Shown here in pieces: positions 8,351-60,663 of a stretch of DNA of 64,000 nucleotides. The stretch is from Atractiella rhizophila. Lineage: Eukaryota. The notes under the pieces are model-generated. The model was not told where the DNA came from. It worked only from the letters and a program-made list of their open reading frames with translations, and ran no database searches. The DNA lies in the NCBI GenBank assembly GCA_021432655.1, contig MU271219.1:62001-126000 (forward strand), read 5' to 3'. Position 1 is the first letter of the stretch. Each line of letters opens with the position of its first letter. The position numbers were made by a program, and so were the translations under genes.

Positions 8351-8812
8351 CCTTGCTTCTTGCTCTTCTTCTTCGAGTTTTGAAGCGAAATGTTTCGATA
8401 GTGTTTAATGGTGATTTAGGGTTAGGGACAGAACAAGGGCAAAGCATCTCCAATCGTACTGCGACGCTCCCACCTCCTTCTTGGAGGGTAGTAACATCGT
8501 TGGAGACGTCGAATCCGCCGCGGACGGAGAGAGGGGAAGAAAGAAAGGCCGCGATGGGCGAAGGAGAGGCCGGAGAATGTGAGTATGACCTAAGGAGAAG
8601 AGTAAGGTTCGCAGGTTCACGCAATTGGGAGGATGTTTGAGCCCTTGGGGGGGAAACATCATTCAATGGGCGAACAAGTTGCGACAAACTCAGACTGACT
8701 CCGCGGATACAGGTGGATTAAAGCACCAAGAAACATCCACAAAGTTATCGAATCGAGTCAGATCCACACAGGAAATGTAGCGTTTACCTCTGCGTCATTT
8801 GAAGCTGCACAA

Positions 8813-11140: not shown

Positions 11141-13773
11141 CTAACCCAATCCCCGCCCTCGTCGGATACAACCCAACATCTCCATGTCATGATTCGGCAA
11201 TATCAGCTCTCCATCTTTTGCACCATCCGGTCGCCAGAGCCCCGGACCCCTGTTCACATTCATTGGATATCGCGCCTCCCCAATTTTCCCTGCCCAATCA
11301 AAGTCCACTAGCATAAACTCTTTCTCATGTCGTGACACTAGGATGTTCGTCTCTCGAACATCACCGTGGACGTAATTTCGCTGATGAAGTTCCGTCAGCT
11401 TGCCTTCGATCATGTCTATCAGCGAAGATGTCGGTGTCGCGTCGTAAAGCTCGACGTATTCATCTGCCACCAACCTATCCATCACTACCATCATCCAGCC
11501 ACCAGGGAGCGCTTCGAAACCTCGAAGCTTTGGTGCACATCCTAGCGAAGCGCATGCCTCATGCACCTCTCTCGAATACTGCCGAACGAATTTCACAAAC
11601 AGCTCCCGCTGCTCCGATCCGATGCAGAAGAAGACCAGCTTTTCTTGGTGTGGCTGGAACACGTATTCGAAGTTCAAGGAATCACCCCCTTCGACAGGAG
11701 TAAAAGTTGTTGGATATGGGAACAGTTGCCGTTGGCGCTTCGGCCGTTTTATGTTGTCGAGTTCGAGCTTTTCATAATATTGCTTCAGGGCGTCAATCGC
11801 CGTCCTGAAAGCCCCGAGATGACGAGCCACCATTCTCCGTAATTTATCGTCCGTGCGGTGATGGTGCAGTGGGAGAGCAGGGGATAACGGTTGGATGACT
11901 GGACGCAAATTCCACACTGCACCAACAAACGCGATGTAAGGCCCTATGCGAACCCGCTCAGTTCAAACAAGATAACCAACAGAAAGAAGTAATGGGACCT
12001 ACCGAATAAAAGAATGAGCATACACGGCAGCGGAGAGCGATGGTAATCGCTCGCGTAGTCTCTGGTCCCCTCCAGGTAGTATAAACACCCTTGACCGTAC
12101 GGCTCAGCTCCTGTACTGCCGATTTCGTTTTTGAACTCGGCAATGGCGTAACGAAAACCGTTGACGGATATATCGCCATCCGTGTCATAATTTTTTATGC
12201 TGCTAGGGATGAGATGAATACCGGAACTTGCGAAAAGGTTGCGAATATCTTGCGCGCGTTCATTTTCTTTGGAATAGAAATTTGACATGGCGGAGCACAG
12301 TCGCAGCACGAAAACGCTGTCGTCCGCTGTCACTTTGTGAGTCTCACACTCGTCGAGAAACCTCCCAAAAACAGAGTGTAGGAGTGTGGGAGGAATCGTA
12401 GCTGTTGCAGTATCAGGGCGGTTGCAATAGATCGTCTTTTCTGCAGAAGACTGCCGTGTCATGAATTTGTCAAGCAACCCTGCGACAGAGGGGGGTTGAC
12501 TCTTATTTGCTCTGAGAAAAGCGAGTCTTTGCGCTCCGACATGATGTTGCTCAAGAGAATCACCGATAGAGAGGCGTGGTCGCACCAATGAATCGAAAAG
12601 GGGTCAGTTGCCTGAAGCACAGACTGAGAAGGACAGCTCACAAGAGGGAGGAGCATCCACAACGATGTGAACGTGTTTCGAAACTGGTGGCTCCAGGAAA
12701 ATGCCAGATAGCGGATCCATGGGGTTTAACAATCCATCTTGATCAAACGTGAGGTTCTTTGATCCTTCTTCGAGGTCGTCATCAAGGAGAGAGACTTTGT
12801 AGAGAACGAGCATGTCGGGGTCCACATCTTGAAATGCAACGGGGCTATCGTTTACAATAGCCTTCTTCAGGAGGAAGACGGTGTCGGTGCTGGAGATCTT
12901 GACACTCCTGGTTTTGCCGACGGGGCTACCCCGTATCCAGTAGTTCAGAAGGAGGTCCGATGCTGCCGAGCGGTCTAGAGAGTCAAGAGAGTCACGACAA
13001 TTAACAAGGTGATAGAAAGGCGAGAATGAATGGCATACAGATTTTTGGCGGCTCGACGACAACAATGTCTGCAATATCGTTTTCGATATCGTCCTCGGGA
13101 AAGAGCTTCGACAACTTCGTTCGTTGGTTTAATTTTTGCTTGTCGTCCAAAGACAGGTTCCTGAGGCGATTTTCGAGGTCGTCATCGTCATCAGGAAGAG
13201 TGACTTTATAGAGAACGAGCATGTCGGGCTCCACATCCTGAAGCGCAACGGGGCTATCGTTTCTAATAGCTTTCTTGAGGAGGGAGACGGTGTCGGTGCT
13301 GGAGATCTTGATGCTAATGATTTTGTCGACGGGGTTACCCCATATCCAGTAGTTCAGAAGGAGGTCCGATGCTGCCGAGCGGTCTAGAGAGTCACGACCA
13401 TTAACAAGGTGATAGAAAGGGTGAGAATGAATGGCATACAGATTTTTGGCGGCTCGGCGACAACAATGTCTGCAATATCGTTTTCGATATCGTCCTCGGG
13501 AAAGAGCTTCGACAATTTCGTTCGTGAGTTTAATTTTTGCTTGTCGTCCAAAGACAGGTTCCTGAGGTGATTTTCGAGGTCGTCATCAGGAAGAGTGACT
13601 TTATAGAGAACGAGCGTTTCGGGGTCCACATCTTGAAATGCAACGGGGTTATCGTTTCTTATAGCTTTCTTGAGGAGGGAGACGGTGTCGGTGCTGGAGA
13701 TCTTGATACTACTGATTTGGTCGGCGGGGCTGCCTCGAATCCAGCAGTTGAGGATGAGTGTTTGCGAGACCAT
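11141..13773 (-). CDS. Crinkler (CRN)-type protein: 3 tandem CRN N-terminal domains + PD-(D/E)xK-like nuclease + kinase-like domain; 5 exons, one acceptor non-canonical (possible pseudogene)
   Basis: Three copies of L.LN.WI.G....IKISSTDTV.LLKKAI...F.DVD...LVLYKV, the last ending HVHIVVDAP. Then TDGD...IAEFKNE, then FVKF, APKL, VHGDVRETNIL, LVDFDWAG. Introns 13439-13384, 13038-12975, 12641-12585, 12002-11944. Confidence 0.8.
12640..13760 (-). repeat. Three ~400-bp tandem exon+intron units encoding the CRN domains
   Basis: Near-identical blocks such as GACGGTGTCGGTGCTGGAGATCTTGA recur near 12880, 13290 and 13680. The intron sequences are duplicated too. Confidence 0.9.
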
Positions 13774-14581
13774 ATAAGCGATTGGGGTTAAGGATGCAAA
13801 GGGACAAAGTGACTCATTATGTCGTGAGGCATCGCATCTAGCAAGGTCTGAGGGCGGCTCACTCATGTCTCGGGTTATATTTTCGACCTCCTAACCATCC
13901 TCTCTGCTTAAGCTCCTCTTGTTGAGAGGCTCTGAGTGAGCATACTTTCAGCGTTTCTTTCCCTAACATTTGTCCAAAGGTGCTCCTTCGGAACTCGCTC
14001 CAAGGCATTCCTTCAAAGCGCATCTCGAAACGCTCTGCGGGACGGGATCAAGAACATTCTTGGATATCTAGTTTACAACGCTCCTCAGAACAAGATTCAG
14101 CTTTGGAGTAGCCTTCGACAAGTATTTCACGATTACTCTGACGATCGCGTACGAACGTTTATGAAATGAAGGACTTGACTTGGTCTCATCTTGGATCTCA
14201 TGATATTTCCGAGGGACGCAACGAGGCCACTTGTCTACATCAAATCCTTGTACGACAGTGGCTGGAGCGAGGCGCGATATTCAAACTGAGCTCGCATGCT
14301 GAAATGCTCAAGCAGTGCACCATCCCGCTTGTCGAAACAACTAAAGCTCCATTGGTTGCCATGACGGCTATTCTAGTAAATTTCTTTCTGTCCCATTTTT
14401 TATACGACTTCAACAACGTTGCCGCCGTGCTCAAGGCATGGTGGTGGTGGTTAAGATTCTTTTCGCCCTCTTCCTCTTTGTCCTTCTTACGCTGCTATGA
14501 TTCGTTCGGGCTTAGTGTCGTTTCCTGAGCTGCGATCACTGAATTCATGGCGTCCATGAGGCTATCGTAGTTATCTAACTC

Positions 14582-17820: not shown

Positions 17821-18790
17821 CACTACTACTATTCCTACTACTATTCCTTCGTGACGGAACTGTTCCGTCAGTCAAATTTGGCTGGGGAACAGAGTTAGGG
17901 TCAGGGCCATGGTGAGTCCCGTCAGCCCAGTTGCGAGGCTCTGACTGACGGAACTAACCTGACGGGACGGAACGCACCGTTGAGTCCCGTCAGCTCGGAC
18001 GTGACGGCCAAATTGTCTCGCGAGGTGGGATCAGCCCCGAAGCGAACCCGCTCAAACATGCGAGGTTCATAGCGAGGGGCCCAGTTCGCTACCAGTCACG
18101 AAGTAGGCACTTCGGGTCGCTGGCTGGCTGCAACGTGCGAAGTGCCTTCCAGTCGCGAAAGGTCAAGTTTGGTTCAGCGATGGGTTGCAACATGCGAAGT
18201 GCCCCTGTAGTTGTGAGGGAGCAGATGTGCGAGAGAGCAAACTCACGGGACAACAAACTCGCGAGAGAGCAAACTCGCGAGACGGCCAACTAGCGAGAAT
18301 GCGAGCTTGCAAGAATGCAAACTCGCCAGACTGCAAACTCGCGACACTGCAAACGCGAGAGAGCACACTCGTGGGACAGTAAACCCTACAGTCGCGAAAT
18401 GGCCACTTTGGGCGGCCCGCTGGCTGCAACCTGCGAAGTGCAGCTCCAGTAGCGAATTAGCAATTTCAGATCAGCAACAGGCCGCAACCTGCGAAGTTCA
18501 ACTGCAGCCACGAAATTTACATTTTGGATCTTCAATGGGCCACAACTGCGAAGTGCCCTCCAGGTGGGTTATAACCACTTCGGGTCAGCGACTGGCTGTG
18601 ACCTACCCCCGGTCGCGAAGTAGCTATTATGGGTCTGCAACGTGCAAAATTCACCTGTTTTGCAAGACAATCACTTTTGTGCAGGAACTAGCTAAAACAT
18701 GTCAAGTTCGCCACCCCTCCAAAATTTCGCTTCGTGTGAGCTGATGAGGACCACTTCGGGTCTGCACTAAGTGGCCCCTTAGGGGGCTAG
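17821..18790. repeat. Structured left-end region: palindrome and arrays of short motifs
   Basis: TGACGGAAC-T-GTTCCGTCA at 17852-17870. Further TGACGG/CCGTCA boxes to ~18006. Repeated GCAAC(C/G/A)TGCGAAGT, AAACTCGCGAGA and CACTTCGGGTC motifs. Confidence 0.8.
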
Positions 18791-19063
18791 GTCCTCAAAT
18801 ACACACCAGAACCCAGCGAGGCCAACATGAGGCCCATGCGTGACTTTGGCCTCCCAGATGCGAACCTTACCCTAAAACATGAACCTATGAAGGCCTTGGA
18901 TCAAAGTAGAGCCTTTTGGAGCCCCGCTTTGTGGGGACATCCTGGTGCACCGGCGCATGCGGCGCCCAAATGTAAAGCCGACCATGCGCTGAAGCTAATC
19001 AGGGAAATAATCCATCAACCACCATCTACTCAGGCATCATCCCCCTCCAGCTCTCAGCAGAAC

Positions 19064-22000
19064 ATGTCCTCCAGCAGTTCAGGTAAGTAAGCATCCCAGA
19101 GCAGGTCATCCCCCTCACGAGACCACAGAACTGTCCCCGAGCGATCTGGGCGCTTTCGTCCTCCCGCCGGGCTACCTCTACTGCCGCAACCACCAGGTCT
19201 ACGTCCACCCCGAGGCGAAAGAGAAACACTTCACCCAGAAAAGCCACAAACTGGCGGGTCACACGAAGAAGCACATCGCCCGAGCCATCCGCCGTCTCCC
19301 GGAGCCCATCGAACCCCCCGAGAGGTATCTGACAGGTAGGGGCGAGAGACCCTCCGCTTCGGGTCCACTGACCGTGACCCAGGCACCCTCCAACCGGCAC
19401 CACCCGAGCCGCTCCCGTCGCTACCCGTCCAACACGGCTACCACTGCCACCACGGCGATTGCCTCCAACTCTTCCTCTCCCACTCCGCCGTCCGAGACCA
19501 CCGCCAGGCGCACCACCGAGACGTGGACGAGCCGAGGTCGACGTCCGCCCACCGCTGCCACGTCCAACTCGTCTACCACCATCACCTCGGCTCCAAAGGA
19601 AACCAAAAGATCATCGCTCACGTCCAGCCGCCCGAAACGAGCCAGCAGCAAGCACGGACGGAACCCCCCGTGCCCACCCTCGCCCAGGTCTCCTACAGCG
19701 AGGCTCGACCCGAACACCTGGCCGAAGGGCAGCAGTCCCGAAGGTCGCTCTTCAACATCCTCCTCCACTGGGACTCGCACCTCTCTGACCAAGGAATCCT
19801 GCACGAGAGGAGCCTCATCCAAAAAAGCGTGCGAAGCCCCGTGGGAGACAAGGACCGGCCGGAGCTCGCGAGGCTCTTCCAACACCTCAAGGACAACGTG
19901 GAGGGCTGGCACCAGAACATCTGGAAGCACGGCTCGGGCAGGATAGGGGAGAGGCTGATGGAGCACCGCGCCGGCGTCGACAGGCTGAAGAACTTTGGGA
20001 GGAAGCTGGAGCCGGGCACCTACGCGAAGTACGCCGCCACCTTCGGGAGGTTCATCTCCTTCATCCTCCACTGCACGAGGAAGCGGGCCGGCCAAAGGCA
20101 CAAGTACGGGTACCCCGAGATGGAGGAGGACATCGAGGCGAAGGCGGACGCCCTATACCGGCACATCGAAGGACTGGGCGAAGGGTCACCCCCCGAAGAC
20201 GAGCCGCTGCTCGACCTCTGCCAAGCCATCTTCAAGCCTCGGGCGACGAAGGACCCCCGAACGGACCTCGCCGTCGAATTCCTGATGAGGACGAGCATGA
20301 GCCCGCAAGGCACCTGGGGAGGAGACGACCGGGTGACCCAACCGGTCTCGCACCTCCAATTCTGGATCCGGCTCGTCGCCTTCAGGATATACGAGCGCGA
20401 GTCCGCCAAGCTCCCGAGGGACGGCTCCGCCGTGGAGGCGATGGAGCTGCTCGCGGGCGAAGCCCAGAAACTGACCACGGCGCACGACCACAACACGATG
20501 GGCAGGATCGCCCGGGTCAAGACGCTCGCCATCCTCATGGCCCGAGACGACTCGCTGGCCACCTCGACTTTCGCTGGCTGGACGAAGAGAAGAAGAGGTG
20601 CCAATACCAGGGGATCGAGTTCGACCTGGACCACATGCGCTCGGTGTTCAGGGAGCCGCTGAGGCGGACGCGAAACGAACTCCGGCAGGGCCTCCTCCAG
20701 GACCTGCCCCTCGACTACGGCCTCCTGCGGAGCCCTAACCTGCGAGACGAACTGGGGAAGCGAGACCTCGGCTACAACTTCCTCCAAGACCCGAAGAACG
20801 GACTGAGCGAGCACTTCCTCGACTTCTTCACCAAGATGACGCCCGAAGTCAAGAAGAAGATGCACGACGCCTCGAGCGGGCGGTGGAAGACGGCCGAGAC
20901 CGAGAAGTTCGTGTCCAGAGCCGAGAAGATGCTCACGAAGATCATCACCCTCTGCTGCCTATGCTGGGGAGGGCCCGCCCAAGGGACAGAGATAGGGCCC
21001 CTGCTGCTCACCAACGCGCCCGAGGGCGAAGGACTGAGGAACATCTTCTGGGCGAAGGACTGAGGAACATCTTCTGGGCGAAGGACACCATCGCCTTCGT
21101 GATGCGGTACAACAAGTCGCAGGCCCAGACGGGCAGGATCCACAGGGTGGCGAGGCTCGTGGACCCCGAAGTAGCTGGCCTCCTGCTGGAATACCTGGTA
21201 TGGGTCAGGCCGGCCGAGATGTGAGAGGAGCCGCCACAAAAGAGGGGACTGACGTCGGGAGCAGCTTCTTCGCGAGCCTGAGGCCGAACGGGGAGCGCCA
21301 CGCGAGCGCAAAGAGGCAGCACCTTTTCGGGGGGATGGACCAGATCAGGATCACGACGGCCGTGAACCGGGAGCTGAAGAAGACGTCGGACCTCGCCGGT
21401 CCCGGATACGTCCCCCCCACTTTCCAACAACTGAGGCAAATCCTGATCGGGTGGGAAGAAGCCCACCTCAGACACCTCATGCCCACTCCGGTCCAGGAAA
21501 CATCGACGATGGAGTCGCAGGCGGGTCACCCGGGGGCTGTGGCACACTCAGAGTACGCAAGGTCGGCAGCAAAGTGAGCGTCACCCCCCTCCCAGAAGAA
21601 CGCGCTGACCGCAGGCAAGGCACACCTTCCTACGCGTGGACATCTTTGACTCATTCCACGCCTCCAGCAAGCTGCACTGGCAGCTCATGTGCGACGTGAG
21701 CCTCTCCTCACATGTGAATCCCCTGACAAGCATCCTAGACCCTGCCAAAGGCTCAGCGAGGGAGGGGGCACGCCTCCAACCCGAGGACCCCTTGTGAGGG
21801 CCATCGGGCGAAGAACTGGCCCGGCGCATCACGGAAGACATCCTCATGGCCCTCTCGCCAAAGCTCGACACAATCCTCCTAGTCCTCGGACAGCGACAAC
21901 CCCCCCACCGTCATCCACACTGCGGCCCAGCACCCCTGAATAGACCCAGACTGGGCCAGAGACTTCCCAAGAAGGGCCAAGCGGCACTCCGTCCGGGTCA

Positions 22001-23956
22001 AGGTCCCCACCGCCCGAAGAACACTGGCATCCACCCCCAAGCGAGATCAAAGAGGCGATGGAGAGGCTCACCGGGAGGAGTGATTGGGCATGGAAGACCC
22101 CCGAGCAGCAGCGGACCGTCGAGGCCCAGTTCGGCTCACAGGACACCATCGTGGCCCTGCTGACAGGAGAGGGAAAGAGCATGACCTGGATGGTCCGAGC
22201 GCTGGCGAGCACCGACGGGAAGACCTCGTGGTGGTGGTCTTCTTCCGGGCTTTGCTGGAGGACCTCCAGAGGCGGACGGGCGCCTCGGGCATCCGCGCCA
22301 TGGAATGGGAAGGCTCGCACACCCCGATAGAACCCGGACACCGAATCATCTTCGTGTCCTCAGAGAGGGTCAAGCGGGGGGCTTTCCTCCAAGCGATGAG
22401 CCAGATGAGGGCCAAGGACCTGATCGGGCGCATCTACCTGGAGGAGGCCCACTCGTACGTCGTCGACGCCAACTACAGAGGAGCGCGAACCAGGTGTGGG
22501 AGCTGACGGGCCTGGCCCCGGTCACCCTCCTCAGCGCCACCTTCCCCACCCACGTGGCGGAGGCCTTGAGGGCGGCGCTGGGAAAGAGCGGCCGCACGGG
22601 ACCGGTCGAGATCAAGGCCAGGACGCGAAGGGGCGAGCTGAAGCTGCTGCACAAGCACGTGGAGCACGACCAGCTCGCGACGACGGCGATGCGGGAGCTC
22701 CTCGCGAGGGCGAAATTGCACCCAGACCCAGACAGCAGGTTCATCGCTTACTTCCACAAGACGAGAGAAGTGGAGGAGTTCGCGGCGGAGGCGGCGAAGA
22801 GGGGGCTGCCCTCCAGCCACTACCACGGGAAGATGGGGGCAGAAGAGAGGGCAAGAGCACAACGGGCTTGGGAGGAGGGAGAAAGCAGGGTCATGGTCGC
22901 GAACCTGGCCTTCGCGACCGGTGAGGTCTTTCCCCGGCCTCGCAGCGGCGAGCTGACAGTGGCTCAGGCATCGACCACCCCCACGTACGCCTGACCCTGC
23001 ACGTGGGAGAATGGCCGACCATGCTGGGGTTCGTGCAGGCAGCAGGCAGAGGAGGACGGGACGGAGCGCCCTCGACTGTGCTTGCCATCACCAGCGAACG
23101 CTCCATCACAGCCTTGGTGAGGTGGGCGGGAGGCGAACCAGACACGGAGGAGATGATCACGTACTGGAGGGAAGCCTTAGAAGGACAGTGCCTGAGGAAG
23201 AGGATCAAGTCCTACATGGATGGAGGCGAGGGCGAAGGGTGCAGAGAGGGCGAAGAGCAGAGCTCGAACTGCAAAGGGATCTCCTCGACGGCGCAGCTCG
23301 CTCAAGAGGAAACGCGCAGAGACGGCGAGCTCGAGCGGATGCCCTCCCGAAAGGACGACACCGGCCCCTCCGCCGCACCTAGCATGACTGGTGAGCACGC
23401 TCCCAAATGAAACCTGCCCCTGACACCACAGCAGGAAAAACAACGCCTGTGGGCAGAGAGGTTGCAGAACCTGCGATGCAAAGTCGAGACGGTGGACACT
23501 TACGCGGAGCGCTCGGCCCCTTTCTGCGTCGCGTGTCGACTGCTGGGAGCGGGACCGTTCCACACCGACGACACCTGCCCCCTCCTACGGGGGGTGTGCA
23601 AGAGGTGCGGGAGCGAGAATCATGGGGTCAAGAGATGCAAGGAGCCAGCACTGGGAGCATTGACCCAGACATGCAGGTACTACGGCCTGGCGATGGGGAT
23701 CCACCGCTTCGGGTGGAGCACGGCGGGCTCCCAATTCGGGTGCCACAGCTACCTGTGAGCGAGCGAGCCGGGAAAGAGGTTGATGATCCACTGTTGGCGG
23801 AACGAGAGGGGGAGGGTGTGCCAGGAATTCGGGCTAAGCAAGGAGGCGACATTCACAGAATTCACTGCATGGGCGAAGACCCCCGTGATGGGCCTCAACG
23901 GCTTCTCCAACAACCTTCAGCTGCTCGCAGCCTGGCGGGCGAGCAGAAACGTGTAA
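19064..23956 (+). pseudogene. Telomere-linked-helicase-like multidomain gene: C2H2/DUF3505-like Zn fingers, tyrosine-recombinase-like region, RecQ-type SF2 helicase, Zn knuckle; disrupted
   Basis: CHHGDC-x12-HRQAH finger. GGPAQGTE, YNK, LRQ, QAGH-x8-Y. Helicase motifs TGEGKS, EEAH, SAT, YHGKM, GID.P.VR, QAAGRGGRDG. CKRCGSENHGVKRC knuckle. Frameshifts near 20565, 21050, 22220 and 22480, and a TGA at 23756. Confidence 0.85.
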
Positions 23957-24012
23957 ACACAGCAGCATCCATAGGCGGCAGGCATGCAATTTCGGCAGGT
24001 GCATGCAGCGAG

Positions 24013-41116: not shown

Positions 41117-42892
41117 TCAAACTTGCACAAGGCGGACCAACGACTGAAAAATAGCAAGTAATCCTAAATAAAACCAATCCATATGCAACTTCAAAATGTC
41201 TGGATACCTTAGTCCTATCCTTCTTATTAAACAGTCTGCTTCTTGAGGACAACGGGGAGACTCACAATGATCTGCAAGTTTCAGCTCATAGACTCTAATA
41301 TTCTCCAAGTTCCTGCATTTAACCTCTCTGGGGCATCGATGCCCACTCTTGGAATAAGAAAAATCAATCAACTTGAGTCTACCGTCATGACCTATCGTGA
41401 CATTCGCATCCGAAATGTCCCAGTGGTCGACTCCACGTTGGTGCACCTTGAGGAGGAGATTATAAATTCGCTGACTGATGTTTAGTTCGCTTCAGTTCGA
41501 CAAAGATAGTGGAGGCAGACGTACTTGATCTCGCAGTCAGAGAAGCCGATGCCGAGCTTACGAAGGCTTTGGCCAACATCCTGAAGCAGGAGGACTCCTC
41601 CACCCTCGTCTGCGCCTTTGTATGCTCCAAAAAGCATAGGAATGTCCAGTCCAGCCAGGTCCTTTAGGCACCTATAAGCATTTACCTCGTTCTCAAGCTC
41701 ATCCTGCACTTGAAGCTCTTTGGTGACAAACTTGTTCGAATCGTTTGCGAAGGAGGCAGTGAACGTGAATGATGAGCGTGTTAGCTGCTCGCGTTGAAGA
41801 AGGAGAAGAGGTTCGAGAGGAGGAGACGGGGGAGGCGTATGAAGACCCGCTCGCTTGAAATGAAATCCATGAGGAGGGGGAGGTGTCTCGAAGTTCACGA
41901 ACTGCGAATCGGGGATTTTGGGAAGTGACAACGTCAAGTTACTTCTTCCTTCAGCCGACAAGCGAACTCGAGGCTATCCGCCTAACACGCTTCGTCAGAA
42001 TTAGGCGCATGTCAGGAATGTTGCTTACTTGCCGGAAGACGGAAGCAATCCCTGGCAAATCCAATGGTATCAGGGGATTTCGCCAAGTGGGAAATTTTCC
42101 ATAGCATCGATTCTGTTGACACCCATGCTATCGTACCATTTTGCGTGCCAATGAGAGAATCCTAACCAGTCCGCTTCTTTCAACATGCCCTCAACAGGAC
42201 CACCTTTACTGTCCTTGCCTTCGCCATGTTTCTCCTTTCCTTTTAATGTCTTGGAACCTTTCCGACTCAGCCTAGGTTCCTGGTCGACAGCCGCGCCGTG
42301 TTCGTCCTTTGGAGATCAAGATCAGTCGCCTCGGAAGCTACTATGGCTTCGACAATGAGGTCCTCTAACGAATTCCCTCCAAATTCCAAGGGAATTTTGA
42401 CGAGAAGTGACAAGAGAGTCTCAATAGTCGGATCACGATCCCACTGAAGAATGTCAGAGACAGCGAAGAAGGTACCATGAATAGGAGTAGTGATCCTCTT
42501 CAAGAAGAGAAACTTTAAACTGGAATGAACGGTAGCAAGATTCAGCTGGAGCTCGGCGTTGGTAAGAGCTAGCTGCAAATCTTGGTTGAGTGATGAGGAT
42601 GAGGTTTGTGACGAGAGGGCGTACTTTGCCAATGATTGAAGTCTCCTCTGTTGTCTGACCATCTACTACCACTGGTTTACGGGAACGAGCAGCCTCCACA
42701 ATTCTTGACAGATCGTATTGGGCTACCTTCCAAGCCTTCTCTTCCGACGACATTTGAGGCACGTCACCAACTGTGAACTGGCCATCGGTAATGATACCTT
42801 TGGAGCGACCGTCCTCGGGGTCCCTGAAAACAGCAACGCCAGATTGATAGGTGAAGGTTGGAAGGCCCATAACACTGAAAATTTGTGTCAAC
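41117..42892 (-). pseudogene. Kinase-like gene, 5'-truncated and frameshifted copy
   Basis: NEVNAYRCLKDLAGLDIPMLFG, LLLQDVG, HQRGVDHWDISDANV, LIDFSYS. A 1-nt deletion relative to the paralogue near 42306 gives a stop at 42267. Homology to the paralogue ends at 42892. Confidence 0.7.
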
Positions 42893-43069: not shown

Positions 43070-43777
43070 AACTCGCATTTGGGTTCACCTCGTGAGTTTG
43101 CAGTCTCGAGAGTTTGCTCTCTCGCTGTCTCATGAGTTGGCCGTCTCGCAGGTTTGTGTCTTACGAGTTTGCTGTCTCGCAAGTTGGCTGTCTTGCGGGT
43201 TTGTTGTCTCACAAGTTTGTTGCTGTCTCACGAGTTTACAAACTAACGTTTGGGTTCACCTCACCAGTTTGCTGTCTTGCAAGTTTGTTCTCTCACAAGT
43301 CTAGTGAAGTTGGTGCCCTCACGATGAACCTCATATATTTCGGTGAGTTCGTGTTGGGGCTAATCCCGCCCTTGTGAACCAATTTGGCCGTCGGGTCCGA
43401 GCTGACGGGACTCAACGGTTCGTTCCGTCCCATCAGGTTAGTTCCCTCAGTCGGAGCCTCACGACTGGGCTGACAGGACTCACCCTGGCCCTGACCCTAA
43501 CTCCGTTCCCCAGCCAAATTTGACTGATGGAACAGCCCCATTGCAAAGGAATAGTACTACTGTAGGAATAGTAGTAGGAGTAGTGTTTATGAGTACATGA
43601 GATGTTGACTGGATTGGTGTTGTTATCTGAGGCAAGGCTCCACCCTGGTTGACTGAGAGGAAACATTTTGGTTAGGATGCTGTTTTTTTGGAGGCAGGGT
43701 TGTACCCTGGGCACCTAGGAGGCATGGATGTAGCCAGGATCCTCTTCCTGACAGAGGCAGAGATGAATCCTAAAGTA
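43070..43777 (-). mobile_element. Inverted, CpG-decayed copy of the end regions of the 17.8-24.8 kb element
   Basis: Reverse complement of 43305-43585 aligns by eye to 17821-18090. 43070-43300 carries the AAACTCGCGAGA-type array. 43695-43777 matches 24650-24781. Confidence 0.8.
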
Positions 43778-44713: not shown

Positions 44714-45548
44714 NNNNNNNNNNNNNNNNNNNNNNNNNNNNNNNNNNNNNNNNNNNNNNNNNNNNNNNNNNNNNNNNNNNNNNNNNNNNNNNNNNNNNNN
44801 NNNNNNNNNNNNNNNNNNNNNNNNNNNNNNNNNNNNNNNNNNNNNNNNNNNNNNNNNNNNNNNNNNNNNNNNNNNNNNNNNNNNNNNNNNNNNNNNNNNN
44901 NNNNNNNNNNNNNNNNNNNNNNNNNNNNNNNNNNNNNNNNNNNNNNNNNNNNNNNNNNNNNNNNNNNNNNNNNNNNNNNNNNNNNNNNNNNNNNNNNNNN
45001 NNNNNNNNNNNNNNNNNNNNNNNNNNNNNNNNNNNNNNNNNNNNNNNNNNNNNNNNNNNNNNNNNNNNNNNNNNNNNNNNNNNNNNNNNNNNNNNNNNNN
45101 NNNNNNNNNNNNNNNNNNNNNNNNNNNNNNNNNNNNNNNNNNNNNNNNNNNNNNNNNNNNNNNNNNNNNNNNNNNNNNNNNNNNNNNNNNNNNNNNNNNN
45201 NNNNNNNNNNNNNNNNNNNNNNNNNNNNNNNNNNNNNNNNNNNNNNNNNNNNNNNNNNNNNNNNNNNNNNNNNNNNNNNNNNNNNNNNNNNNNNNNNNNN
45301 NNNNNNNNNNNNNNNNNNNNNNNNNNNNNNNNNNNNNNNNNNNNNNNNNNNNNNNNNNNNNNNNNNNNNNNNNNNNNNNNNNNNNNNNNNNNNNNNNNNN
45401 NNNNNNNNNNNNNNNNNNNNNNNNNNNNNNNNNNNNNNNNNNNNNNNNNNNNNNNNNNNNNNNNNNNNNNNNNNNNNNNNNNNNNNNNNNNNNNNNNNNN
45501 NNNNNNNNNNNNNNNNNNNNNNNNNNNNNNNNNNNNNNNNNNNNNNNN
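44714..45548. other. Assembly gap
   Basis: Run of N. Confidence 1.
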
Positions 45549-46716
45549 TAGCATCGATTCTTTTGATACCCATGCTATCGTACCATTTGCGTGCCAATGA
45601 GAGAATCCTAACCAGTCCTCTTCTTTTAACATGCCCTCAACGGGACCACCTTTGCTGTCCTTGCCTTCGCGATGTTTCTCCTTTCCTTTTAATGTCTTGG
45701 AACTTTTCCGACTCAGCGTAGGCTCCTGGTCGACAGCCGCGCCGTGTTCGTCCCTTTGGAGATCAAGATCAGTCCCCTCGGAAGCTACTATGGCTTCGAT
45801 GACGAGGTCGTCGAACGACTTCCCTCCAAATTCCGAGGGAATTTTGACGAGGAGTGACAAGAGAGTCTCAGTAATCGGATCCCGATCACACTGAAGAATG
45901 TCAGAGACAGCGAAGGTACCATGAATAGGAGTAGTGATCCTCTTCAAGAAGAGAAACCATAAACTGGAATGAACGGTAGCAAGGTCCAGCTGGAGCTCGG
46001 CGTTGGTAAGAGCGAGCTGCAAATCTTGGTTGAGTGTTGAGGATGAGGTTTGTGACGAGAGGGCGTACTTTGCTAATGATTGAAGTCTCCTCTGTTGTCT
46101 GACCATCCACTACCACTGGTTTACGGGAACGAGCAGCCTCCACAATTCTTGACAGATAGTGTTGGGCTACCTTCCAACCCTTCTCTTCCGCCGACATTTG
46201 AGGCACGTCGCTAACTGTGAACTGGCAATCGGTAATAATACCTTTGGAGCGATCGTCCTCGGGGTCCCTGAAAACAGCAACGTCAGATTGATAGTTGAAG
46301 GTTGGAAGGCTCATAGCACTGAAAATTTCTGTCAACACTAGTCCATAAGCTACCTCAAACAGAGGTCGAACATCAGTTTCCGGAGAAAGTTTGCGGGCTT
46401 TGAGAGTCCTGTCGGTATATTGAAGAGCACCATCGATATGTTTGATAGCCTCAGGATTAATAACCCAGGGGCACGACTCCGAAGTTAAATAATCGTGAAA
46501 TCGCTGTCTCGCAATTTCCGTCAATTTGGGGCAATAGATCAATTTCTGGGGAAGTCCTGGGAATGGGAATGTGAGGGCATGCGGCTTTTTGTAAGGTGAC
46601 GTTTCCGGTTGCCAACCAAGCTGTTGCTGAGATGCAGTCGGCTGGTGGTTGAGTGGCCGTTTCGGGAGCCTCTTTATGTGCTCTGAAAGAAACTGACGAA
46701 GTTTCAATGAAGACAT
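45549..46716 (-). CDS. N-terminal half of a paralogue of the 41.1-42.9 kb kinase-like gene; 3' part lies in the gap
   Basis: 45549-46336 is highly similar to 42102-42892. Open frame from MSSLKLRQF, with one GTACGC..TTGCAG intron near 46068-46017. Confidence 0.6.
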
Positions 46717-58900: not shown

Positions 58901-60663
58901 GATGACGGTTTGGAGAGCACGGGACAAGAGGATGTTGGCCTTTTGAACGAGAAACGGTTCCGCCATGCGACAAAAGATGCAGCGCAAGTGCCGGACGGCG
59001 TCATGACGTATTTAGCCGTGACCCCAAACAAAAAACGCGTCGTTCAATTCGGTTCAATAATTACTTGGGCTCTCCTCAGGCTATCCCAGCTCTCGCAGCG
59101 TATGCGTCTTGGCACCTGAACTTCAAGGTCGACTTTGACCCTCCTCAGCTGTCCCATAATGGACTGTCCGTTTCGCACGCGTGAGGTCAAAACAGTAGTA
59201 TAATACGAGAAGGGAAGAAAAGTAAGGCCGCCATCCAATGAGACCAAACGTGCAAATAGAGGTAGAAATAAACTCAACCCTTTCCATTCAGGAGATATCA
59301 AACGGCTTTGCTAGAGCAATCTAACAAGAACTTCTGTCTCTGACAAAACGTTGCAGCAAACAAATATTTCATGTCATAAAGCGTGGGCAGATAGATAGTA
59401 GAAAGAAAGGTCACGCGCGTGTTGAATCATATCAAAACACCAGCTTAACATATCCAGACTGCTCAATTGCCACATTCTAATCGAAGACCTGGTCTTGGTA
59501 CATAGACAACGTCTAAATTGCTCACCATTATATCTCCCTTCCCACACCTTCACATCAACTGAATCATCCACCTTGGAATCTCCTCGCCGTACCTCGGTGC
59601 GTAAATGCTCAGATATTGAAATCGAGGCAAATATGTCATGCACTGTTTTTAGTAGGCAACGCTTCTTAGGGTTAGGGATAGGCAGAGTGAGTGTGCAGAC
59701 TTAACATTCATTGCACCGTTTGGAAGGATTCCGGAAGGTCGTACTTTAGCCAGTTTAGGTCTTGGATTCGATGAGAAAAGAACATTAAGTGAAATTGAGC
59801 AGTTGCCGGTTGTCAAAGGTAGAAGGAGGTGTGCCTTTCCTTTCGAGCTCGCTCGACAACTCTTCGTAGTCTTGCATTCCAAGGATGATGAAAATTATGA
59901 TACCTTGTCCCCTTATCCATGTATGGTTCGAGAAGAGCGCAAGAGGCAGCGAATAGCACCCTGCCCATCTTTGTACGAGTGTGACCTTGACGAGGAACCA
60001 CCGACTAGATGAATGGACATGGACAGAAAGAGCTAGAGTCTTGAGCTCGCCCAGCTCTTTGTCGGATACCCAAATCCAACCACGTCTAAAATTGTTTTCG
60101 TGGTCTTGCAGCAAAGATCATGTCATAGTAGGAGTGACGGCTTCAGGTTCAAGTATAGGGTGCGCTCCTTACCCTAGAGAGCGACATAAACATGAACGGA
60201 GAAAAGACCTTTTCACTGACGAACCAAAGCTTCCACACTGTACAAAATGTACGAGGTGCTAAGGGAGACATGGTGAGGTTTATTAAGTGACTGCGGAAGT
60301 ACTTCGAGCAAGGGAAAATACCAAAAAGTCCCGTAGATACCTTGTCGTCAACACATCAGGCCGATGGCTTCCTTATGTGGCTTTACTCATCGCTCTCTGT
60401 GCCCAAGATGTTAAATTCAAAATAAGCCATTCAGCCTCGGCGTTTAGGTACTCTAACACCTAAATTCCTAAACCTCGCACCTGTTTGCTCTACAGAGGTC
60501 TACACCTGCTTACACTCCATGGAGTTGGAGCTCTAAGCTCAACGGTTCAAGTGGACTTCTGTCTCTCCAACCACCTCTGCCATCGCCTATAAAAGCACCG
60601 GCACCATCTGGTCCTGATTATCTGCATTGAAAGCGGCCATTTAGCAATCTTCTTCTTCAAAAC

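Follow-up and report, generated by a model that had tools for sequence, protein, structure and literature searches.

Many fungi, among them fission yeast and major plant pathogens, have telomere-linked helicase (TLH) genes at the ends of their chromosomes. In the published layout the encoded proteins run from C2H2 motifs through a "TLH domain" whose function is unknown to RecQ motifs, and the text available of that preprint assigns no function to the conserved domain upstream of the helicase (bioRxiv 10.1101/2024.02.27.582403). Genes combining OrsD, DEAD and Helicase_C domains were likewise described in the subtelomeres of Fusarium, Colletotrichum and Pyrenochaeta (bioRxiv 10.1101/721753, in the portion available). 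A gene of this type lies in the window analysed here, a stretch of 64,000 nucleotides of the fungus Atractiella rhizophila (assembly GCA_021432655.1, contig MU271219.1, positions 62,001 to 126,000 of the forward strand). The subject of this report is the middle, or TLH, domain of the encoded protein, which, judging from comparisons of structure models, probably has the fold of a tyrosine recombinase (YR).

The Atractiella gene resembles the described TLH genes in its paired N-terminal C2H2 (OrsD) region, in a conserved, presumably equivalent domain between this region and the helicase, and in its RecQ motifs. Like them it is multi-copy, with some copies abutting telomere repeats and many paralogues decayed. 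It differs from them in that the window copy has no adjoining telomere tract, and its likeness to the published TLH proteins is one of layout.

A second group for comparison is formed by the Cryptons and their derivatives (CryptonF, Ndc10/Cbf2, Gcr1 and the DUF3504 proteins), eukaryotic YR-type domains with very low identity to bacterial YRs and an occurrence in fungi, features that the Atractiella domain would share. A set of proteins carrying ALOG_dom together with Phage_integrase is also found among the structural neighbours of the Atractiella protein, and copies of the TLH element appear to have a common 5' boundary near 18805. Unlike the Cryptons, the Atractiella gene shows no YR-type Pfam match and no GCR1_C domain, and its middle domain is fused to a RecQ helicase, whereas the word "helicase" occurs 0 times in the available text of the Crypton paper (PMC3212892).

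Bacterial and phage YRs (XerC/XerD, FimB/E and the lambdoid integrases; PF00589) share with the middle domain the order of its candidate residues (R..K..xxxR..H-x8-Y), in which three of the four adjacent intervals are in range, and a two-lobed layout suggested by alignments of models. They differ from it in that it gives no signal with hidden Markov models (HMMs) or hhalign, has Q at the position of the HxxR histidine, and has a box II to box III spacing that is off by +7 or -1. An architectural analogue only is the Rep-Hel protein of Helitrons, multi-copy eukaryotic elements in which a domain that cleaves and joins DNA likewise stands N-terminal to a helicase. The Helitron nuclease is of the HUH type and its helicase belongs to the Pif1 family, which sets it apart from the TLH case, and no homology is claimed.

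The middle domain and its structural neighbours

The locus is a decayed copy of a multi-copy TLH-type RecQ helicase gene. The NCBI model BT69DRAFT_1330036 of A. rhizophila (862 amino acids, here called P0001) covers 18827-21794, each of its seven exons mapping exactly. Downstream of this model the helicase and a zinc knuckle run on in other frames. The parts of the gene are the following (SF2, helicase superfamily 2).

18827 to about 23956 (3' end approximate), forward strand: TLH-type pseudogene, assigned from names, exon mapping, frames and motifs
19182-19516, forward strand, split by an intron at 19338-19384: OrsD-type paired C2H2 zinc-finger region (PF12013; E 1.8e-08, 35.2 bits against a cut-off of 26.6; P0001 residues 104-199)
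19907-20554, forward strand: N-terminal helical lobe, candidate core-binding-like (P0001 residues about 330-504, continuing in frame 2; from ESM Atlas alignments to two-domain YR clusters)
20578-21644, forward strand: C-terminal, putatively YR-catalytic-like lobe of the middle ("TLH") domain, which holds the motifs discussed below (P0001 residues 529-812; from ESM Atlas alignments)
22163-23065, forward strand: RecQ-like SF2 helicase core (Helicase_C 25.4 and 23.9 bits, cut-off 23.5; DEAD weak)
22163-22180, 22438-22452, 22527-22544, 22967-22990 and 23039-23065, forward strand: helicase motifs TGEGKS (motif I), LEEAH, LLSATF, GIDHPHVR and AAGRGGRDG, respectively
23597-23638, forward strand: CCHC zinc-knuckle-like motif CX2CX4HX4C (zf-CCHC_4, E 0.027, below the cut-off)

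Strings of the CxxC/HxxxH type at 19179-19202 and 19439-19462 represent the two N-terminal C2H2 motifs of the TLH layout. At the other end of the gene, motifs I, II, III and VI can be made out in the helicase, whose best PDB sequence matches include RecQ, RECQ1, RECQ4 and RECQ5, from E 6.7e-05. Between zinc fingers and helicase lies a middle region of ~480 residues that matches no Pfam family and that presumably corresponds to the named TLH domain of about 250 amino acids. The TLH unit (18000-24000) has 59-64% G+C as against about 46-50% in its flanks, and its AT skew is strongly positive (0.20-0.26).

Several copies of the gene exist, P0002 and P0003 being diverged Atractiella paralogues, and P0001, P0002 and P0003 are all singleton clusters from A. 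rhizophila. Protein homologue searches returned the A. rhizophila paralogues P0001 and P0002 only, and phmmer with a 125-residue exon against 1.84 billion representatives returned P0002 and P0003 only. Metagenome scans gave just two matches, L015 and L016, both to an acidic low-complexity stretch and without TLH or helicase similarity, and tblastn of P0001 against 50,697 phage records gave no match at E<=10.

The case for a YR-type fold comes from the ESM Atlas, in which the Atlas's own ESMFold model of P0001 was compared with cluster representatives; the mean predicted local distance difference test score (pLDDT) of that model is 0.56 over the whole protein. For residues 330-800 the nearest neighbours were fungal clusters (three of them untitled, one containing OrsD and two DEAD/Helicase_C), followed by four other sets, all of them with Phage_integrase in 11-100% of their members. 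Their template modelling (TM) scores were as follows.

ALOG_dom plus Phage_integrase set, Cnidaria: TM 0.36 by query, 0.33 by target
Actinobacterial recombinase cluster of 337 residues: TM 0.39 by query, 0.50 by target, 255 residues aligned
Phage_integrase-bearing cluster of 682 residues: TM 0.37 by query, 0.28 by target
Phage_int_SAM_1 plus Phage_integrase cluster of 293 residues: TM 0.35 by query, 0.51 by target, 214 residues aligned

Alignments to the full-length two-domain YR clusters cover query residues 330-791 and 359-792, and the alignments to clusters with Phage_int_SAM_1 and Phage_integrase suggest a two-lobed, YR-like layout for the middle region.

For residues 529-812, the alignments to six fungal rows have TM scores by query of 0.59-0.80, five of them in the range 0.76-0.80, and three of the six rows carry OrsD, DEAD or Helicase_C. 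This segment is therefore a conserved domain of the family, in agreement with a first-pass annotation of this DNA, made from its letters, which placed the motifs described below in the usually unannotated middle of a helicase family. The three other sets found with this segment all bear Phage_integrase, at TM 0.40-0.46 by query over 167-184 aligned residues, about the whole length of a YR catalytic domain. Among the 30 nearest models listed per look-up, all non-fungal family sets carry Phage_integrase (4/4 and 3/3 in the two look-ups, 7/7 together).

Candidate active-site residues and alternative readings

Tyrosine recombinase-like motifs can be picked out in the C-terminal lobe at these positions, along the forward strand.

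20968-20991: GGPAQGTE, with CAA (Gln) at 20980-20982 in the proposed position of the box-I arginine
21105-21122: RYNKSQ, with the candidate beta-hairpin lysine at 21114-21116
21422-21439: FQQLRQ, with an arginine (AGG) at 21434-21436 and Q at the R-3 position (21425-21427)
21461-21478: AHLRHL, with an alternative box-II arginine at 21470-21472 (HLRH at 21464-21475)
21518-21535: QAGHPG, with the candidate box-III histidine at 21527-21529
21545-21562: HSEYAR, with the candidate nucleophile tyrosine at 21554-21556, nine positions from the histidine (H-x8-Y)

Every residue of the set flagged in the first-pass annotation lies where it had been placed, including the glutamine said to replace the HxxR histidine. 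The RYNKSQ segment was placed by MAFFT beneath the K-hairpin region of XerD, and its lysine is retained in the paralogue P0003; MAFFT and hhalign favoured AHLRHL over QQLR as box II. By eye and post hoc, the segment can be read in a YR-like order of helix-Arg-x-x-Glu, hairpin Lys then helix, LF, LAG, x-x-L-R-x and G-H-x8-Y. The flagged motifs are spread over three frames (1, 0 and 2, counted relative to base 18000) because a 26-bp tandem duplication (21024-21086) and a 44-nt intron (21221-21264) lie between them.

The spacing of the candidate residues was compared with that in the 13 PF00589 proteins of E. coli K-12. Three intervals are within the range of these YRs, namely 36 residues from the first arginine to the lysine (23-39 in E. 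coli), 92 from the lysine to the second arginine, taken at 21434 (64-93), and nine from histidine to tyrosine (9-10). The distance from the first arginine to the tyrosine, 168, is slightly outside (124-162). The histidine of the HxxR box is not invariant, since two of the 13 E. coli YRs carry Y instead of H at this position.

The glutamine in box I can be compared with other copies of the gene in two Logan contig runs of the same organism (X1 and X2), which represent one sample, possibly the source of the assembly. Position 20981 is G in every covering contig (two in X1, depth 263.4/263.4; one in X2, 108.4/108.4), and the A of the window is present in no covering contig of either run, one contig ending at 20980. 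Position 20980 is T in one contig per run, giving TGA. The box-I codon is thus CGA (Arg) in one X1 contig, TGA in a more decayed copy and CAA in the window. CGA is the only codon one transition away from both CAA and TGA, both changes being CpG transitions. Arginine is the simplest ancestral state because CGA alone is one step from all three states, and the CAA of the window is most simply a copy-specific change. The earlier proposal that the first arginine was mutated in this copy is supported by the CGA found elsewhere and by this relation among the three codons.

A considerable body of results weighs against a tyrosine recombinase. As regards the motifs, the relaxed pattern [RQ]xxE..K..[HQ]xxR..[HW]x8-9Y arose in 452 of 5000 residue shuffles (9%) of a 720-residue read-through of the gene; the strict pattern of R, K, HxxR, H and Y, present in 140/5000 shuffles, had no match in the real sequence. 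The motif constellation alone is within chance expectation. The interval from the second arginine to the histidine is 31, as against a tight 20-24 in the E. coli YRs (+7), and with the alternative arginine at 21470 it becomes 19 (-1) and the interval from the lysine grows to 104, both outside the range. The residue at the HxxR histidine position is Q.

Profile searches point in the same direction. No YR match was obtained with Pfam at E<=1 on P0001 and in-frame fragments, with PHROGs and NCBIfam at E<=10, or with phmmer against PDB at E<=10. The Pfam scans gave no match to any YR-type family, NDC10_II, DUF3435, DUF3504 and Phage_integrase among them, and none to GCR1_C. The read-through, scripted with an X placed at each of two breaks, was also tested with HMMs built from the 13 E. 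coli YRs: hmmsearch --max gave no match at E<=1000, hmmalign left the sequence unaligned, and hhalign against the E. coli YRs returned a probability of 0.17% (E 0.36). With sub-HMMs the score of the real sequence was reached by 168 of 2000 shuffles for box I, 171 of 2000 for the K-hairpin and 1032 of 2000 for box II. These failures lower the YR claim moderately only, because distant eukaryotic YRs share very little sequence with bacterial ones, as described in the available text of PMC3212892. On the structural side, the TM scores by query to YR clusters are all below 0.5 (0.35-0.46) and the family assignments were flagged "under the bar"; the lead rests on one language-model structure of mean pLDDT 0.56, and an AlphaFold2 model of P0001 residues 301-850 made without an alignment had a pLDDT of 34.8 and was unusable.

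The integrase domain proposed in the first-pass annotation therefore has borderline positive structural neighbours (TM 0.35-0.46 by query and up to 0.51 by target), while the profile searches found no YR. Tentatively, and short of calling it probable, the middle domain may be taken as a highly divergent YR-type module for breaking and rejoining DNA that would be catalytically competent in intact members of the family; catalysis and role are what we infer here.

Unlikely, though it has to be reckoned with, is that the middle domain is unrelated to YRs, a TLH-specific, mostly helical domain of some other fold in which the motifs are a chance constellation picked by eye. The frequency of the motif pattern in shuffles (9%), the uniformly negative profile and HMM tests, and the TM scores below 0.5 by query on a low-confidence model, together with the AlphaFold2 pLDDT of 34.8, are all as this explanation would have them. 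Against it stand the Phage_integrase found in all non-fungal sets among the 30 nearest models listed, and alignments that span a whole YR catalytic domain or a two-domain recombinase, which would be hard to obtain if the neighbours were arbitrary.

A little more doubtful is a domain that derives from a YR and is no longer an enzyme but binds DNA or protein and loads the RecQ helicase onto subtelomeric DNA. Such a domain would have the same ESM Atlas fold lead, and the Q in place of the HxxR histidine, the further Q directly after the arginine and a box-II to box-III spacing outside the 20-24 of active YRs would suit it. There is also the precedent of Crypton-derived fungal and animal domains without a preserved catalytic site, such as Ndc10/Cbf2, Gcr1 and the DUF3504 proteins (PMC3212892, in the text available). 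According to the same portion of that paper, however, the tyrosine and the second arginine are gone from every one of the domesticated DUF3504 domains (PMC3212892), whereas candidate Arg, Lys, Arg, His and Tyr residues are present here, the first arginine as the probable ancestral state; this argument from retained residues is weak, since they were chosen post hoc.

It is most improbable that the domain belongs to the same superfamily and performs a different reaction, for instance nicking and closing DNA at chromosome ends in the manner of a type IB topoisomerase or a telomere resolvase. Such enzymes have the YR catalytic fold in common and a residue other than His at the HxxR position, and the gene family sits at telomeres, but no Topoisom_I or resolvase family was found in the Pfam scans or among the ESM Atlas neighbours, and it is TTAGGG repeats, and not hairpins, in which the telomeres of this fungus end.

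Lesions, sister copies and surrounding sequence

The first-pass annotation had advised repairing frameshifts before any profile or structure search. This premise holds in part only: two of the apparent shifts in the motif interval are introns, and the true lesions are the 26-bp duplication inside the motif interval and a 1-nt deletion at 20556 just upstream of it. The introns and lesions are listed here; the intron calls were made from splice consensus and the NCBI model alone.

20555-20557, forward strand: 1-nt deletion specific to the window copy, frame 2 to 1 (extra G behind 20556 in all contigs covering the site)
21024-21086, forward strand: tandem duplication, period 26 bp, 2.4 copies, 100% matches, score 126
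21221-21264, forward strand: intron of 44 nt (GTGAGA..CTGAC..CAG, CTGAC being the branch site), joining frame 0 to frame 2 (splice consensus and P0001, with exon 5 ending at 21220 and exon 6 starting at 21265)
21574-21619, forward strand: intron of 46 nt (GTGAGC..CTGAC..AAG; splice consensus and P0001)
22921-22967, forward strand: helicase intron of 47 nt

The extra G behind 20556 was found at depths of 112.1/112.1 in X1 and 148/148 in X2, and the coding signal of the window switches frame there. The extra unit of the duplication (e.g. 21061-21086) shifts frame 1 to frame 0 within the region of the GLRNIFWAKD strand, a peptide that can be read twice, in frames 1 and 0. Two "introns" of P0001, at 20432-20505 and 20908-21032, are artefacts that skirt the 1-nt deletion and the duplication, and the second of them drops the box-I segment from the model. 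The helicase contains two further frameshifts, at about 22222 and 22477, and one other copy has a G inserted behind 22477. The window copy is dead: its box-I arginine has become Q, one nucleotide is missing at 20556, 26 bp are duplicated, and the helicase is broken by two frameshifts or more.

Sister copies of the TLH element are telomere-linked. In contigs of the same organism, truncated copies of the element run into telomere repeats, TTAGGG behind 19558 and CTAACC before 23161. The window copy is internal, at least 18 kb into the window, and has no telomere tract beside it. Telomere repeats are represented in the window only by isolated exact TTAGGG dimers (TTAGGGTTAGGG) at 8416-8427 and 59666-59677, which are possible interstitial telomere remnants.

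The summed contig depth of the 5' 750 nt of the TLH element (18800-19560) is about 290-845, several-fold higher than the about 60-370 over most of the body, with the exception of one X1 bin at 656 near 23200-23380, and many contigs diverge upstream of 18805. The 5' part of the TLH element thus looks more highly repeated, and 18805 resembles a shared boundary.

Immediately upstream of the TLH start codon, the 16-nt motif GCAACNTGCGAAGTGC occurs in four copies within 18130-18499, a number of matches reached by 0/100 shuffles, and a tandem array with a 16-nt unit lies at 18229-18362. The repeats of 18130-18499 may be a promoter, an array of binding sites or a subtelomeric repeat.

A pair of 190-nt inverted repeats (17836-18025 and 43370-43559) is 88% complementary over a distance of 25.3 kb and rich in palindromic motifs of the GACGGAAC type. 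Similar sequence (..CTATTCCTTCGCGACGGAACT..) abuts the 5' part of TLH in other copies, at 18852 and 18936, and a small repeated element seems to insert in or beside TLH units. The possibility that the two inverted repeats are the ends of a 25.7-kb terminal inverted repeat element carrying the TLH gene was considered and rejected, the open reading frames (ORFs) being ordinary-looking and without transposase domains.

Further repeats are found elsewhere in the window. Direct repeats of about 630 nt (42140-42767 and 45586-46211), 92-96% identical and spaced by about 3446, flank a gap of N at 44714-45548 and are either like long terminal repeats or a duplication in the assembly. A tandem repeat at 12776-13792, with three copies of about 400 nt at 76-100% identity (families D1 and D3), overlaps minus-strand ORFs beside a kinase-like ORF.

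Implications for the TLH gene family

As a gene, the locus is one more decayed TLH copy; the annotation of the TLH domain as a YR appears to be new, and it is not established. In the literature searched, with subscription papers (including the 2009 paper on the TLH motif) and the figures and supplements of preprints outside its scope, no text was found that joins TLH genes with a tyrosine recombinase, and the word "recombinase" occurs 0 times in the available text of the two TLH preprints (bioRxiv 10.1101/2024.02.27.582403 and 10.1101/721753).

If the middle domain is a divergent YR-type module, its active site may comprise the arginine of the ancestral CGA (20980), the lysine at 21114, the arginine of either QxxR (21434) or HLRH (21470), the histidine at 21527 and the tyrosine at 21554. 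Binding or targeting of DNA would fall, in an intact protein, to the zinc fingers together with the N-terminal lobe, and the catalytic lobe would cut one strand through a 3'-phosphotyrosyl link to the tyrosine and then rejoin it. The fused RecQ motor would unwind or branch-migrate the substrate, and a recombinase-plus-helicase of this kind could move, copy or exchange the subtelomeric TLH unit among chromosome ends.

The widest version of this proposal, in which TLH proteins are active YR-RecQ fusion enzymes and TLH units are telomere-associated mobile or self-propagating DNA that combines Crypton-like chemistry with a helicase, much as Helitrons pair Rep with Pif1, is speculative and on present evidence doubtful. 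If true, it would explain the multi-copy location of these genes at chromosome ends, their patchy spread from fission yeast to a choanoflagellate, and a TLH domain that has stood unexplained since 2009. Should the middle domain break and rejoin DNA, TLH genes would no longer count as helicases with a chance location in subtelomeres; they would be candidates for recombinases by which subtelomeres are shaped or spread, or which aid the maintenance of chromosome ends independently of telomerase.

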